A stretch of 64,000 nucleotides of DNA from a virus, in IMG/VR virus record IMGVR_UViG_3300045988_086557; one strand, given 5' to 3'. The position numbers and the translations under genes were made by a program. This document shows, in pieces, positions 1 to 64,000 of the stretch (within the stretch, counting starts at the first letter, position 1; every line of letters begins with the position of its first letter). A model generated the notes under the pieces. It saw nothing but the letters and a program-made list of their open reading frames with translations, did not search any database and was not told the origin of the DNA.

Positions 1-137
1 GAGAGGAAATCTATGAGATATTTTGTTAAAATACCAAGCAGAGGAAGAATACAAAGCTAGAATATTTGAATAACAATTTCAGGCATATTAATTCCTCCTT
101 TATATTATATATAAAACAATAGGAAGATAATTTAACT

Positions 138-761
138 TTATTTGACCTGCGGGTTTCCGTTTAACCGATCTTTTTGCTAACGCTCATAAATTCTTAATCT
201 AAGAGTGCTTTCAGATATGTCTTGACATTCTTTCGCTAATCTAGTAATTGGCTCATTATGTAGATAGCGTTCATATAATTCATCGAAATTATCTGGAAGA
301 TTTTTTCTTGGTCTACCAAATTTTATTCCTTTCTATTTAGCTGCGGCTATTCCTTCTGCCTATCTCTATTTAATATATGTTCTTTCCTGTTCAGCCTAGA
401 AAGATAAGATTTGTAAGACTAGATCTGATATAAAAGTACCCATAATATCTTTGCAATATGACGTATCCAATAATGGCATATCCAAAACTTTTATATCTAC
501 ATTTTTTGTCTTTGTTATTAAACTCCATTGTTCAAGAATTTCAGAATAATTACGTCCTAGTCTGTCAATGGACTTCAGGAGAATCATATCTCCTGAAGTC
601 ACAGTATCCATCATTTTCTAATAAGATGGTCTATTAAAATCTTTGCCCGACTGTTTATCTATGAAGATATTTTCTTCTTTAACCCCAGCTTCAGTTAAAG
701 CAAGAATTTGGCGGTCAATATTTTGGTCACGTGAACTAACTCGTGCGTATCCGTATAACAC
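138..761 (-). CDS. small serine recombinase (resolvase/invertase family), about 207 aa; continuous only when 6 in-frame TAG codons are read as sense
   Basis: N-terminal catalytic motif '[16 protein letters not shown]', '[10 protein letters not shown]', C-terminal '[14 protein letters not shown]...GRPRK' plus HTH. GTG start 6 nt after GAGGTG. ORF-track fragments 618..809 and 396..614 are in the same frame and joined by TAG. Confidence 0.8.
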
Positions 762-879
762 CTTTATCACCTCATAGATATATAAAAAATTGGCAATTTT
801 ATATAACAAAAATTGCCCAAAATTTTGGCAATTCGGCGTTTTGATTTATATAAAATTTTATTATATAATATATATAAGA

Positions 880-1128
880 TTACCAAGGATAATCTCTAGC
901 AATCAAAACATCGCCTTCTGGCATTATAAATTTATATCTACCATCTGAATAAACATCATCAATAGAGCTTCCATCTTTTATTAAATATACATTATCTGAT
1001 ATTCCTGCACTCATAGGACTGCTGTAAACAATTTCTCCAGGGGTTGCTCTTACTGGATAGCCATATTGAAGGCTTGTTTTATCTATTATTGAATACTTTT
1101 CCGTCTGAAAAGTTTGGTTAATAATCAT
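880..1128 (-). CDS. hypothetical protein (82 aa, TAG-free), in tail-fibre neighbourhood
   Basis: intact ORF in track; between recombinase and tail-fibre-like genes; no recognisable motif. Confidence 0.35.
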   Translation of the reverse strand: MIINQTFQTEKYSIIDKTSLQYGYPVRATPGEIVYSSPMSAGISDNVYLIKDGSSIDDVYSDGRYKFIMPEGDVLIARDYPW

Positions 1129-1259
1129 GTTCGCACCTCCTACAAAATTATATATATCTATATATCATTTTCTGGAATTTTTTGGGCTTTAAAAGTTAAA
1201 CTATTTTCTTGTTGATTTATACACTAAATGCCTGAATTATTATATATATCTATATCTTT

Positions 1260-1530
1260 TATTGTTGGAGTTGGACAAATTATCTATTTGCCCTCATCGC
1301 TCAATACTCCAATTATATTTACTGTTTGAGTATTATTAGACCAAGCTGATGAATATAGAGTTATCAATTTAATAATAGGTTTAAGTGCAGAATTTGCTAA
1401 TATAGTATTGAACTCCTTTTCAGTTCCAGTAAACCCTCCTTCTTTAGCTGTTTCATAAGCAGATTTACCGTTTAATCCAGGCTACCCTATTCCAGCAACC
1501 TTTTTCCCATTTACTTTTATCATAGTATAA
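1260..1530 (-). CDS. hypothetical structural protein (TAG-containing)
   Basis: manual translation through 2 in-frame TAG gives a continuous Gly/Thr-rich protein; boundaries approximate. Confidence 0.3.
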
Positions 1531-1559
1531 TACTACCTCCTAAATTTAATTAATATTAC

Positions 1560-2160
1560 CTCCAGTAGAAGTAATTGTAGCGGGACCAATAATTTTATAT
1601 GCTATAACTTGATAATTATTATTTATTAATATAGCTCCCAAACTTTCATATGCAGACTGAGGAGTAATTTTAAGTCCTGAAGAAGAACCGGCATTTATAG
1701 TTATAATACTATTTTTTATCACTTTATAATTATTTTTCTACACTACCCATACTGACATTGGCGCATTTTCATATTCTATTATTACAGTACATCCACTTAT
1801 ACCACTCAATGATTCAAATATAATATCCACCGTTTCTATAGGGGTTTCTGTTGTAATCTATCCTATCTTATCTGCCATAGTTGAAAAACTATCGGTCGCC
1901 GCAGTTTCTACTCCTTTGTCAGTGACTGCGGTCGCTATTAGGGTTTTGCCCTCACTGACATCGGTAAAAAGCTCATCAATAGCTGATTGAACATTAGTGG
2001 CTTTCATACTTGAAGTTTCATTATTATATTCTATTGATGATGCAGTAAGATTTTCATTATCTTCTTCATCAAATTCAATAGTATAAGGTCCTAACCCTAA
2101 TGTTTCTTCCATTTCTGCGCTACCGCCTCCTGGTACGGTAATAGCATTTTGGTTTTTAAC
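1560..2160 (-). CDS. tail-fibre-like protein (TAG-containing), includes ORF-track fragment 1858..2112
   Basis: Gly-rich N-terminus, 'NVQSAIDELFTDV' segment, Thr/Ser/Gly-rich C-terminus typical of fibre proteins; continuous only through TAG. Confidence 0.35.
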
Positions 2161-2271
2161 CTATCCAGTTAAAATACATTCCATAGATATTTTCTCCTTT
2201 CATCTAAAACCTTTAAAAAAGTACACTTTTTAACAGGAAAAATACTTCTTCTGTCTAGATAACAAAAAATT

Positions 2272-2298
2272 GGGAAAAGGGTAAGAAACCCTTTTCCC
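2272..2298. terminator. bidirectional stem-loop 'GGGAAAAGGGT aagaa ACCCTTTTCCC' between convergent/divergent blocks
   Basis: 11-bp perfect stem in AT-rich intergenic DNA between minus-strand fibre genes and plus-strand DGR target. Confidence 0.4.
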
Positions 2299-61989: not shown

Positions 61990-62009
61990 GCTTTAATCCT
62001 CCTATTCAT

Positions 62010-62335
62010 CGCTTTTTCACAAATACATGAAAAAGTCGCGACTGTTATCTTAACTCTGTTATCTAATATATGTTATATTTGTTGTATTGTCAGAATACCA
62101 TGAAATGGATTTTTATTTACTTTCATGGTATTGTCAGAATACTATGTCATAGTATTGTTGGAAAGCTATGAAAATCCTTTTTATTTAATTTCATAGTATT
62201 ATCAGAATACCATGAAAACAATTTCATAGCTTTCCAACAAATACATGAAAATTTCATAGCTTTTTCACAATATGATGAAATCATAGTATTCTCAGAAATA
62301 CATGAAATTTTTCATAGTATTGCAGAAATACGATT
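62010..62335. repeat. iteron array: about 9 copies, both orientations, of a 22-28-bp unit ('TTTCATAG(T/C)ATT(G/C)TCAGAA(A)TAC(C)ATGAAAA'); candidate replication origin
   Basis: 'tattgtcagaataccatgaaa', 'tttcatggtattgtcagaatac', 'ttggaaagctatgaaaa' / 'tttcatagctttccaa' (inverted pair), 'catagtattctcagaaatacatgaaa' etc.; ORF-free. Confidence 0.6.
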
Positions 62336-62727
62336 AAAAAGAAAATTTCTCTCCGTCTGGAGCTATATAATTATACTTGTCGTCGTCACTATCAATAGGA
62401 ATCTCGTAAAAATCGTAATATCCTTTTCTCTCAACTGGAACTAAATATCCCTTTTTTACCAATCCATCTATTGCACTTGTATATTTCGCTCTCTTTATAC
62501 CAAGCTCTTTTTCTATAATAGTAGGCCCAAAATCATAATCAATTAACTTCTCAGATTGACTAGCAAAAAATATCCACAAAGAAAACTCTCCATCTGTCAA
62601 CTCTCTACGGGCCGCAAATAACGCTTCCTTATTAATCCTAGCATATATATTATTAGTATCACATGGTTCCTTATGAATATGATTAATAGTTCGCTAATTA
62701 GGACTTCTTCTTTTGTCTGCCATGGCA
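62334..62727 (-). CDS. winged-helix DNA-binding protein, candidate replication initiator/origin-binding protein (about 131 aa, 1 in-frame TAG)
   Basis: 'FSLWIFFASQSEKLIDYDFGPTIIEKELGIKRAKYTSAIDGLVKKGYLV' wHTH; 3' end abuts the iteron array; upstream part joined via TAG (MADKRRSPN.RTINHI...). Confidence 0.45.
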
Positions 62728-62936
62728 ATCATCCTCCAATAGCGAACTTATCCCTTTATACTTCTAAACTGCATCCCTTAAATCCTAACTATCTTCAAAA
62801 AGATAAACATTTAACCAAGGTTTCTAAACATTAGGAACAGTTCCAACAATAATAAAACCAAGATCACAGAGTTTGCGTGCTAACTTTACTGTAAAAACTT
62901 TATAAGTATCATTAGTCATTTAGTTTAATCTCCTTT

Positions 62937-63070
62937 AGTCTACTTTATTTTTCTCAATATATTCTTTTATAGCCCATCTAATAAGCTATGACAATTTAAT
63001 ATCGTGCTCTCTACAATACTTTTCTAACTCTTGTTTTTCTTCCTCAGAAATACGAGCTGCTATCTAAGCC
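62937..63070 (-). CDS. ribbon-helix-helix (CopG/Arc-like) regulator, about 44 aa, 2 in-frame TAG
   Basis: 'RISEEEKQELEKYCREHDIKLS.LIRWAIKEYIEK' RHH pattern. Confidence 0.5.
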
Positions 63071-63099
63071 ATATAAATCACCTCTCTACTATATCTTTA

Positions 63100-63411
63100 C
63101 TTTTATTATAACATAATTAATTGCGGTTGTCCAACTTTTTTAATATTTTTTTATTACAATTATACTATGTCCACAATATCAGATTTTAGACCAACCATTA
63201 GAAATTTTTGGACACTCGTTAGAAAAATTCGGACAAAAATGCCTATATGACCATTTTATTAAAATTCCTGCGGAATTGCCAATTTTTCTGCCTAAAAAAT
63301 TCCCGCATCCGTGAGAAATTATGACGGTTCGTTATAATCCATAAGATTTACTTGCGTATCTTAATAAAATATGGTAATATATTTATATAAATAAGAAAAG
63401 AGGTTTTACTC
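63100..63411. promoter_or_regulatory. divergent control region with 4 TGTCCA/TGGACA repeats and a rightward TTGCGT-N17-TAATAT (TGg) promoter
   Basis: 'ggttgtccaac', 'atgtccacaat', 'tttggacactcg', 'ttcggacaaaaa'; promoter hexamers just before the RBS of 63412. Confidence 0.45.
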
Positions 63412-63918
63412 ATGCCATTAGCTATTGGATTCTTTATATTACTCATGATTACATCTCTTATAGTATTATATAAAGACTGTGACTTTTTTGCAGAATATCT
63501 ATTCTCTACCGTTTTAGGGGTTATGCTTTCAGCATTAATCACTTTCTTATTTGTGATTATAATTTGTGGTATTGTTATTTTTGTTGAACCTGCAACTTAT
63601 TCTGCGAAAACCACTCAAACATATTCTATTACTGCTTTGAGTGATAATTTTAGTTCTTACGTAGGCCGTTATTATACAGAAGATGGGCTCTATTACTCAT
63701 TCCTGTATCAAACAGATAAAGGTATAACCGCCAAATCTATTGAGGCAGATCAGTCCTATATTAAGAATACAGATGATGCCCCATACATAGAAGAAAACAA
63801 AATCCGTTTTAAAAACCCAGTTTTGAATTTCCTGCTTGGACCCTGGTCTACCGAGTATACCATCTATATTCCAGAAGATTCATTTATCCAAGAGAATTAT
63901 GTAATCGACCTTGAGTAA
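63412..63918 (+). CDS. membrane protein with 2 N-terminal TM helices + extracytoplasmic domain (168 aa, TAG-free); candidate superinfection-exclusion/lysogeny-associated protein
   Basis: track ORF; AGAGG RBS; followed by terminator 'AAGACGCTCTtaaaAGAGCGTCTT'+TATTTTTTT at 63930..63962. Confidence 0.45.
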   Translation: MPLAIGFFILLMITSLIVLYKDCDFFAEYLFSTVLGVMLSALITFLFVIIICGIVIFVEPATYSAKTTQTYSITALSDNFSSYVGRYYTEDGLYYSFLYQTDKGITAKSIEADQSYIKNTDDAPYIEENKIRFKNPVLNFLLGPWSTEYTIYIPEDSFIQENYVIDLE

Positions 63919-64000
63919 AATAAAGACGCTCTTAAAAGAGCGTCTTTATTTTTTTATAAAATTATTATATAATATATATAGAAAGTTAAGGAAAGGAAGT

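Follow-up and report, generated by a model that had tools for sequence, protein, structure and literature searches.

TAG codons assigned to glutamine are used block-wise and gene-selectively in an SPbeta-like siphovirus of the human gut

Phages that read TAG as glutamine (genetic code 15) have been described from several lineages, and a published model of alternatively coded phages sets out the same scheme as the one considered here (Borges et al., preprint 10.1101/2021.08.26.457843). Glutamine at TAG was confirmed by peptides in crAss-like phages (Peters et al., PMC9523058), block-wise coding has been described with Mgcod (10.1101/2022.06.29.495998), and code 25 phages match recoded hosts (10.1101/2021.08.26.457843). 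The human-gut siphovirus phAss-1 carries three Sup-CTA transfer RNAs (tRNAs) and a 36-tRNA array (Babkin et al. 2023, PMC10607447), and members of the proposed genus Phassvirus share 80-86% nucleotide identity (PMC10607447). Here we analysed a 64,000-nucleotide stretch of viral DNA, IMG/VR record IMGVR_UViG_3300045988_086557 (the window), in which many genes are interrupted by in-frame TAG. We consider it very probable that the window represents 64 kb from the ~147-kb genome of an SPbeta-like siphovirus that infects Clostridia of the human gut and follows code 15, with TAG as glutamine and TAA and TGA as stops, and in which recoding would act as a gate on late expression. The phenomenon is the one already described as code 15 and not a new code, while the lineage is undescribed but very common; in the sequence collection, a single window protein has entries in 1,314 blocks, on contigs of up to ~150 kb.

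An earlier note on this DNA had claimed that TAG is a sense codon and proposed a comparison of translation tables 15 and 11, which showed a large gain when TAG was read as sense. In a greedy non-overlapping map of open reading frames (ORFs) of at least 60 amino acids, table 11 covered 48.8% of the window (G+C content 34.9%), with a median ORF of 88 and a longest ORF of 463 amino acids, whereas reading through TAG raised the coverage to 93.6%, the median to 166 and the longest ORF to 2,908 amino acids. Reading TGA as sense in the same type of map gave a coverage of only 54% with the longest ORF unchanged, and no sign of a TGA reassignment (code 4 or code 25) was found in the window, where ORFs did not lengthen with TGA as sense and 13 genes end in TGA. 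The ORF statistics of standard-code relatives were nearly unaltered by TAG read-through. Frames in the window are interrupted solely by TAG, never by TAA or TGA, and family matches run continuously across the TAGs, including the PHROG match of the portal, PF00239 of the resolvase, RVT_1 of the reverse transcriptase and both domains of FolD. Of the genes that the note had named as broken, the portal, resolvase, reverse transcriptase, FolD, AbrB-like and ribbon-helix-helix (RHH) genes are indeed continuous across TAG. Furthermore, TAG columns are conserved to the same degree as Gln columns, and the same TAGs recur across independent assemblies from many samples. In-frame TAG in the window genes is a sense codon.

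A refined gene map was built from coding potential with TAG scored neutrally, and it agreed with the calls of an independent gene caller on near-identical contigs. It contains 71 genes, 40 of which carry at least one TAG, with 342 in-frame TAGs in total. In agreement with the note, all genes end in TAA (58) or TGA (13) and none in TAG, a zero that is partly inherent in any map that treats TAG as sense; in six standard-code relatives, TAG is the stop of 23 of 171 genes (13%). Support apart from the map came from the lack of a TAG excess near ORF ends and from 29 plus-strand genes without in-frame TAG, called by the independent caller within and beyond the window. TAGs are placed uniformly along the ORFs (Kolmogorov-Smirnov p = 0.43) and are fewest in the last decile, and hence there is no sign that TAG-ending genes were artificially extended. 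The possibility that TAGs coincide with true C-termini, raised in the note, was also examined: the C-terminal domain of FolD extends beyond its last TAG, and no pile-up at 3' ends was seen. Minus-strand TAG-containing ORFs at 54.9-61.4 kb in the first greedy longest-ORF map were rejected as artefacts that arise antisense to real genes once TAG counts as sense; according to both the independent caller and the coding-potential map, this region is in fact occupied by TAG-free genes of the plus strand. The base following TAG (+4) is enriched in A relative to that following CAA/CAG (p = 5e-4), but a specific suppression context at +4 was not found, as the base distribution after TAG equals that of all codons.

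The amino acid at TAG was addressed by two independent tests. In a codon test that used DNA only, without reliance on database translations, window TAGs were aligned with recoded relatives from public assemblies (58-99% protein identity). The aligned codons were TAG (411), CAA (129), CAG (55), GAA (26), AAA (14) and TGG (0), so that CAA and CAG made up 184 of the 343 non-TAG replacements, and the reverse comparison, from the relatives to the window, gave the same picture. CAA is two positions away from TAG yet is the commonest replacement, which argues for amino-acid equivalence rather than mutational proximity. In a residue test, the window proteins were aligned with those of six standard-code phages, namely a contig from human faeces plus phages of Enterococcus, Alicyclobacillus, Bacillus, Lactococcus and Staphylococcus. 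Glutamine accounted for 81 of the 269 residues at TAG columns against a background of 3.6%, and a likelihood classifier derived from these alignments ranked it best, with His next at 99 nats behind and lower values for Lys (-111), Glu (-118), Tyr (-319), Trp (-428) and Leu (-432). When the test was widened to ten standard-code relatives by four found later, glutamine made up 178 of 507 residues (35%) across 93 distinct TAG positions and was present in at least one homologue at 56% of these positions. The CAA/CAG positions of the window had the same profile in this test (56% with Q in at least one homologue; Q at 211 of 742 residues). The solved Sin recombinase has Q at two of the five resolvase TAG columns, the 'R[TAG]AEGI' motif among them, which bears out the earlier claim about this motif. 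Together with the codon replacements, the Q content of 30-35% in standard-code homologues upholds the suggestion that TAG is most compatible with Gln, and both tests assign TAG in the window to glutamine (code 15).

As the note had stated, the 64-kb window itself holds no tRNA detectable by ARAGORN or Rfam. The search beyond the window that it had recommended located a tRNA(CUA) in contigs of the same phage. Contig L005, 99.9% identical to window positions 53416-64000, reaches 9.9 kb further to the right and adds 15 further plus-strand genes without TAG before the start of a tRNA array; contig L018 overlaps L005 over 2.9 kb at 99.1% identity. The array, with 31 tRNAs and a transfer-messenger RNA (tmRNA), occupies L018:1225-19592 (~8 to ~26.5 kb right of the window). 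The tRNA(CUA) lies at L018:18458-18533, ~25.5 kb past the right end of the window, scored 59.8 bits with the Rfam tRNA model, and is identical in a second contig (L020:13077-13152). It folds into a canonical cloverleaf with U1, an unpaired 1:72, G73, U35, a 9-nt D-loop and a 5-bp anticodon stem, so that the label 'Pyl' given by ARAGORN is a mere naming convention for the CUA anticodon. The acceptor stem (positions 2-6 match) and the D-arm resemble the phage tRNA-Gln(UUG), and U1 and G73 are also like those of bacterial tRNA-Gln. A CUA anticodon, G73 and a weak first pair are features favoured by glutaminyl-tRNA synthetase (GlnRS). The tmRNA at L018:7795-8110 (Rfam, 114.6 bits) encodes the tag peptide DNDYFENYLAA, and a tRNA-like element of 117 nt, whose anticodon arm contains 55 inserted nt, is found at L018:10598-10714.

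The use of TAG was found to differ strongly between regions. The late/structural module (7640-45987, minus strand) consists of 26 SPbeta-like siphovirus genes, with Pfam Yon/Yom families matched on orthologues, and contains 287 TAG versus 299 CAA/CAG codons. TAG thereby makes up 49% of its Gln codons and ~2.3% of all its codons; 287 in 12,546 codons, ~1 per 44, falls within the density of one per 30-50 codons given in the note. The large terminase TerL (41992-43737, minus; 581 amino acids) has 13 in-frame TAGs and matches in PHROG, its homologues are full-length (577-583 amino acids, 75-97% identity), and a database copy, P0001, carries Q at all 13 TAG positions. The portal (39989-41614, minus; 541 amino acids, 12 in-frame TAGs) matches phrog_2739 over residues 73-539 (E = 2e-80), and its tblastn matches are the portals of phAss-1 and of Enterococcus, Bacillus, Lactococcus and Staphylococcus phages. 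The tape measure protein (20873-29599, minus; 2,908 amino acids, 101 TAG versus 105 CAA/CAG) is homologous to those of EF1, Tsamsa, WRP3 and SPbeta-like phages. Pfam gave no match for TerL, the portal, the capsid, the tube and one tail protein, although PHROGs did. Residues 5-227 and 353-578 of TerL match phrog_15503 and phrog_24618, respectively, both of 'unknown function' and each similar in length to a TAG-delimited fragment; these two families were probably built from recoded terminases called with table 11.

Within this module, several virion genes lack TAG altogether. The YonB-family major capsid protein (36952-38004, minus; 350 amino acids) has 13 Gln codons and no TAG, the tail tube of the YomU_Tube family (31812-33203, minus; 463 amino acids) has no TAG, and the minus-strand late genes at 29705-30244, 36354-36887 and 38024-38713 are likewise TAG-free. 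In the capsid, tube and three neighbouring genes together there is no TAG among 37 Gln codons, with P = 1e-12 at the TAG fraction of the neighbouring genes. We then counted TAG across 16 related loci, of which 12 are recoded and four use the standard code. The capsid orthologue is TAG-free in all 16 (summed TAG 0, CAA/CAG 205), while the orthologues of 38024-38713 (TAG 2, CAA/CAG 126), 36354-36887 (3 and 82) and the tube (1 and 71) contain few; the mean TAG share of the TerL and portal orthologues in the same 16 loci is 27-29%. Avoidance of TAG in the capsid, tube and neighbouring genes is conserved across the clade.

The other parts of the window add to this pattern. Recoded blocks are the four minus-strand genes at 138-2184, including a Sin-like recombinase (TAG 14, CAA/CAG 20, TAG share 41%), the plus-strand retroelement block at 2471-7595 (17 and 42, 29%), a 112-amino-acid gene together with FolD (46384-47193) at 46083-47193 on the plus strand (10 and 11, 48%), and a minus-strand island of five genes at 61412-63081 (9 and 6, 60%), in which the RHH/DUF6290 gene (62935-63081, minus) has two TAGs. 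In FolD, PF00763 and PF02882 cross TAGs, and the C-terminal domain extends beyond the last of them, as far as residue 272 of 274. By comparison, a plus-strand block of ~26 small genes at 47160-61254 is compatible with the standard code (TAG 3, CAA/CAG 70, TAG share 4%; Fisher p = 1e-15 versus the late module), and none of its genes uses TAG as a stop. A second TAG-free plus-strand block begins with the gene at 63412-63918, whose protein is common to many contigs of ~146-148 kb, and in same-species contigs it runs for at least 9 kb past the window into the tRNA array holding tRNA(CUA). The note had described TAG as sense throughout, which did not hold: 31 of the 71 genes have no TAG, including the plus-strand block at 47160-61254 and five major virion genes. 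Recoding in the window is block-wise and gene-selective, not uniform.

The block at 47160-61254 contains two TAG-free genes, a poly(ADP-ribose) glycohydrolase of the microbial type (PARG; 47772-48539, plus) and the peptidyl-tRNA hydrolase PTH2 (48524-48961, plus), which adjoin FolD and are kept in relatives, and it also encodes AbrB/MazE-like regulators. One of these (52291-52524, plus; 77 amino acids) carries one in-frame TAG inside the otherwise TAG-free block. Its counterparts in the relatives L022, L026/L027 and L032/L033 have exactly one TAG each; in L026/L027 and L032/L033, where its position was located, it sits at a different codon. This gene may be a suppressor-dependent regulator.

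Based on these characteristics, we propose the following course of events, in which we infer when genes are expressed, which enzyme charges the tRNA, that it competes with release factor 1, what the host is, and why virion genes avoid TAG. The phage would infect a standard-code host, whose unmodified machinery could translate the nearly TAG-free plus-strand blocks (47.2-61.3 kb and from 63.4 kb onward), and in same-species contigs these blocks lead into the phage tRNA array with the CUA anticodon. A host enzyme would load glutamine onto tRNA(CUA), either GlnRS directly or glutamyl-tRNA synthetase followed by the GatCAB amidotransferase. The charged tRNA(CUA) would then beat release factor 1 at UAG, allowing the TAG-rich late genes to be fully translated, and late read-through of TAG would account for its loss as a terminator from every gene. 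The abundant virion proteins, namely those of the capsid, the tube and three neighbouring genes, likely avoid TAG because suppression would be slower or leakier than normal decoding. Recoding would thus gate the expression of late genes at the level of translation, as has been put forward for other alternatively coded phages. Genome-bin membership and relatives point to Clostridia as the host.

Several observations weigh against this proposal. Among its paralogues in the array, tRNA(CUA) is closest to tRNA-Trp(CCA) (64-71% identity) rather than to tRNA-Gln (62-68%); over the 13 nt that surround the anticodon, C35U is the sole difference from tRNA-Trp(CCA), and the T-arm also matches Trp. The tRNA(CUA) lies outside the window, in 99%-identical contigs and not in the one to which the window belongs. 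The partition is imperfect, as TAG occurs in some genes that lie between the tRNA array and the suppressor tRNA, and 'early' and 'late' are assigned from gene content and strand. Contigs were placed in Oscillospiraceae, Eubacterium and Lachnospiraceae genome bins, and such placement is a weak indicator of the host.

The resemblance to tRNA-Trp, together with the 'Pyl' label, might be taken to mean that TAG is sense but stands for another amino acid, namely Trp, pyrrolysine, or Tyr, Leu, Ser, Glu or Lys. We consider this extremely unlikely, since TGG never replaces a window TAG while CAA and CAG dominate, and the classifier places Q ahead by at least 99 nats. The mosaic sequence of tRNA(CUA) means that its isotype is not readable from the sequence, and Gln is settled by the alignment statistics; in addition, the E. 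coli suppressor su7, a CUA derivative of tRNA-Trp, is charged mainly with Gln, which counts against Trp. As to pyrrolysine, a canonical cloverleaf with a 9-nt D-loop and a 5-bp anticodon stem differs from tRNA-Pyl, TAG reaches ~2.3% of late-gene codons, the TAG columns are Gln-like and not Lys-like, and no pyl genes turned up among the proteins scanned. A host that itself decodes TAG as Gln, with the phage merely matching its code and driving no switch, has precedents in code 25 phages and in code 4 Mycoplasma phages. Such a host, however, gives no reason why large blocks avoid TAG while their neighbours use it for ~50% of Gln codons. Moreover, the phage has its own tRNA(CUA), the relatives L036 and L052 (TerL identity 64-68%) use the standard code, the bins holding the contigs are those of ordinary Clostridia, and no bacterium is known to read TAG as Gln; a host-matched code is therefore very improbable.

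Code 15 with TAG as an obligatory glutamine codon also has to be weighed against a dual meaning, in which TAG still terminates a few genes or is only partially suppressed to give truncated and full-length products. Six real genes do have a TAG in their last 10 codons (1125-1523, 12885-15674, 16907-20821, 35491-35808, 46384-47193 and 61606-61989), and the phage-encoded PTH2 and tmRNA could clear failed decoding events. Nevertheless, ~9 such genes are expected from a uniform density, the last decile of the ORFs is the lowest in TAG, and in one of the six, FolD, the Pfam domain extends beyond the last TAG, so that a dual meaning appears improbable. That the in-frame TAGs reflect pseudogene decay or sequencing or assembly errors is refuted, and we leave it practically no probability: apart from the fragmented look under table 11 nothing speaks for it, only TAG breaks the frames, the same TAGs occur in independent assemblies, and TAG columns are conserved like Gln. 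A further, tentative and rather doubtful possibility is that recoding is not a simple early/late switch but a tuned, gene-by-gene control of expression with its own quality-control kit. It would draw on the exclusion of TAG from abundant virion genes and on the single, shifting TAG of the AbrB-like gene, whose product could then be synthesized only with the suppressor tRNA; PTH2 and tmRNA might in that case clean up after failed UAG decoding.

The left end of the window holds further elements. The Sin-like small serine recombinase (138-809, minus; PF00239) has six TAGs. A diversity-generating retroelement spans window positions 2471-7159 and includes a target gene with Big_3/DUF6273 (2471-4264, plus), a variable repeat within it (4148-4250), a template repeat (4871-4973) and a reverse transcriptase with RVT_1 (5280-6497, plus); all 17 mismatches between the variable and template copies of the 103-nt repeat fall on template adenines. 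A 176-nt segment (2215-2390) between the divergent genes 1546-2184 (minus) and 2471-4264 (plus) is 93-100% identical in six related contigs, L010-L015 (100% in four), in which it is inverted relative to its flanks, and the inverted repeats AAAAAGTACACTTT and AAAGTGTACTTTTT form its borders. BLAST had suggested a perfect palindrome, which was rejected in favour of an inverted segment. The recombinase gene sits 1.4 kb away. The segment probably serves as a phase switch or invertible promoter beside the retroelement target gene.

These results leave knowledge of the genetic code unchanged. They add a well-sampled, Clostridia-associated lineage with standard-code relatives in the same clade to the alternatively coded phages. 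Under table 11 the phage is unreadable and TerL is fragmented, and annotation, clustering and host-linking pipelines consequently need code 15 or block-wise codes. A large protein database holds window-phage proteins with Q at TAG, which indicates that current pipelines handle the lineage. Both the avoidance of TAG by the capsid and tube genes and the regulator with its one TAG lend themselves to tests of what amber suppression costs and of recoding-timed expression.

Compared with described phages, the window phage has much in common with phAss-1 and the proposed Phassvirus (NCBI 'Caudoviricetes code 15 clade'), human-gut siphoviruses of 133-138 kb with SPbeta-like and Enterococcus EF1-like kin, as here. 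In phAss-1, too, TAG is Gln in TerL, the portal, the tape measure protein (~3,150 amino acids) and tail genes, and a Sup-CTA tRNA within a large tRNA array and an unrecoded capsid gene are common to both, as is, in the portion examined here, the lack of an aminoacyl-tRNA synthetase. The amino-acid identities are 36% for the portal, 43% for TerL and 52% for the capsid, and the suppressor tRNAs are 65% identical. The window lineage differs in its size of ~147 kb and in having one tRNA(CUA) so far versus three. Its further differences are a tmRNA, a diversity-generating retroelement and an invertible segment linked to a recombinase. When 10 kb of the late module were compared by megablast with 50,697 phage records, no match was obtained. 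By the protein identities and this lack of a nucleotide match, the window phage belongs to the wider phAss-1 clade but lies outside the proposed genus Phassvirus. The standard-code relatives L036, L045, L048 and L052 share 51-68% TerL identity with the window, and the recoded relatives among L022-L054 share 62-96%; the two kinds are interleaved, which implies that recoding was gained or lost repeatedly within the clade.

The code-15 crAss-like phages and Lak megaphages share with the window phage TAG as Gln, a phage suppressor tRNA, block-wise use of TAG, depletion of TAG stops, early regions compatible with the standard code, recoded structural and late genes, and standard-code relatives interleaved in the tree. 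They are unrelated lineages with Bacteroidota hosts, and for crAss-like phages there is peptide proof, whereas the window lineage is known from sequence alone. Some crAss-like and Lak phages encode release factor 2, which did not turn up in the part of the present genome that was examined (all but ~50 kb). The standard-code SPbeta-like siphoviruses (Enterococcus EF1/VRE9, Bacillus Tsamsa, Lactococcus WRP3 and Staphylococcus SPbeta-like phages) share syntenic TerL, portal, YonB capsid, YomU tube and giant tape measure genes as well as tRNA arrays, but in them TAG is a normal stop (13% of genes) and does not occur in frame. The mechanism also has a counterpart in the E. coli amber suppressors supE (tRNA-Gln CUA) and su7 (tRNA-Trp CUA), which compete with release factor 1 at UAG and insert Gln there. 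Both are ordinary tRNAs with a CUA anticodon, and the tRNA(CUA) here, with U35, G73 and a weak 1:72 pair, can be likened to them. supE and su7 are chromosomal point mutants that suppress partially, whereas the tRNA(CUA) of this lineage appears to be a dedicated phage gene that would serve hundreds of obligatory sense TAGs.

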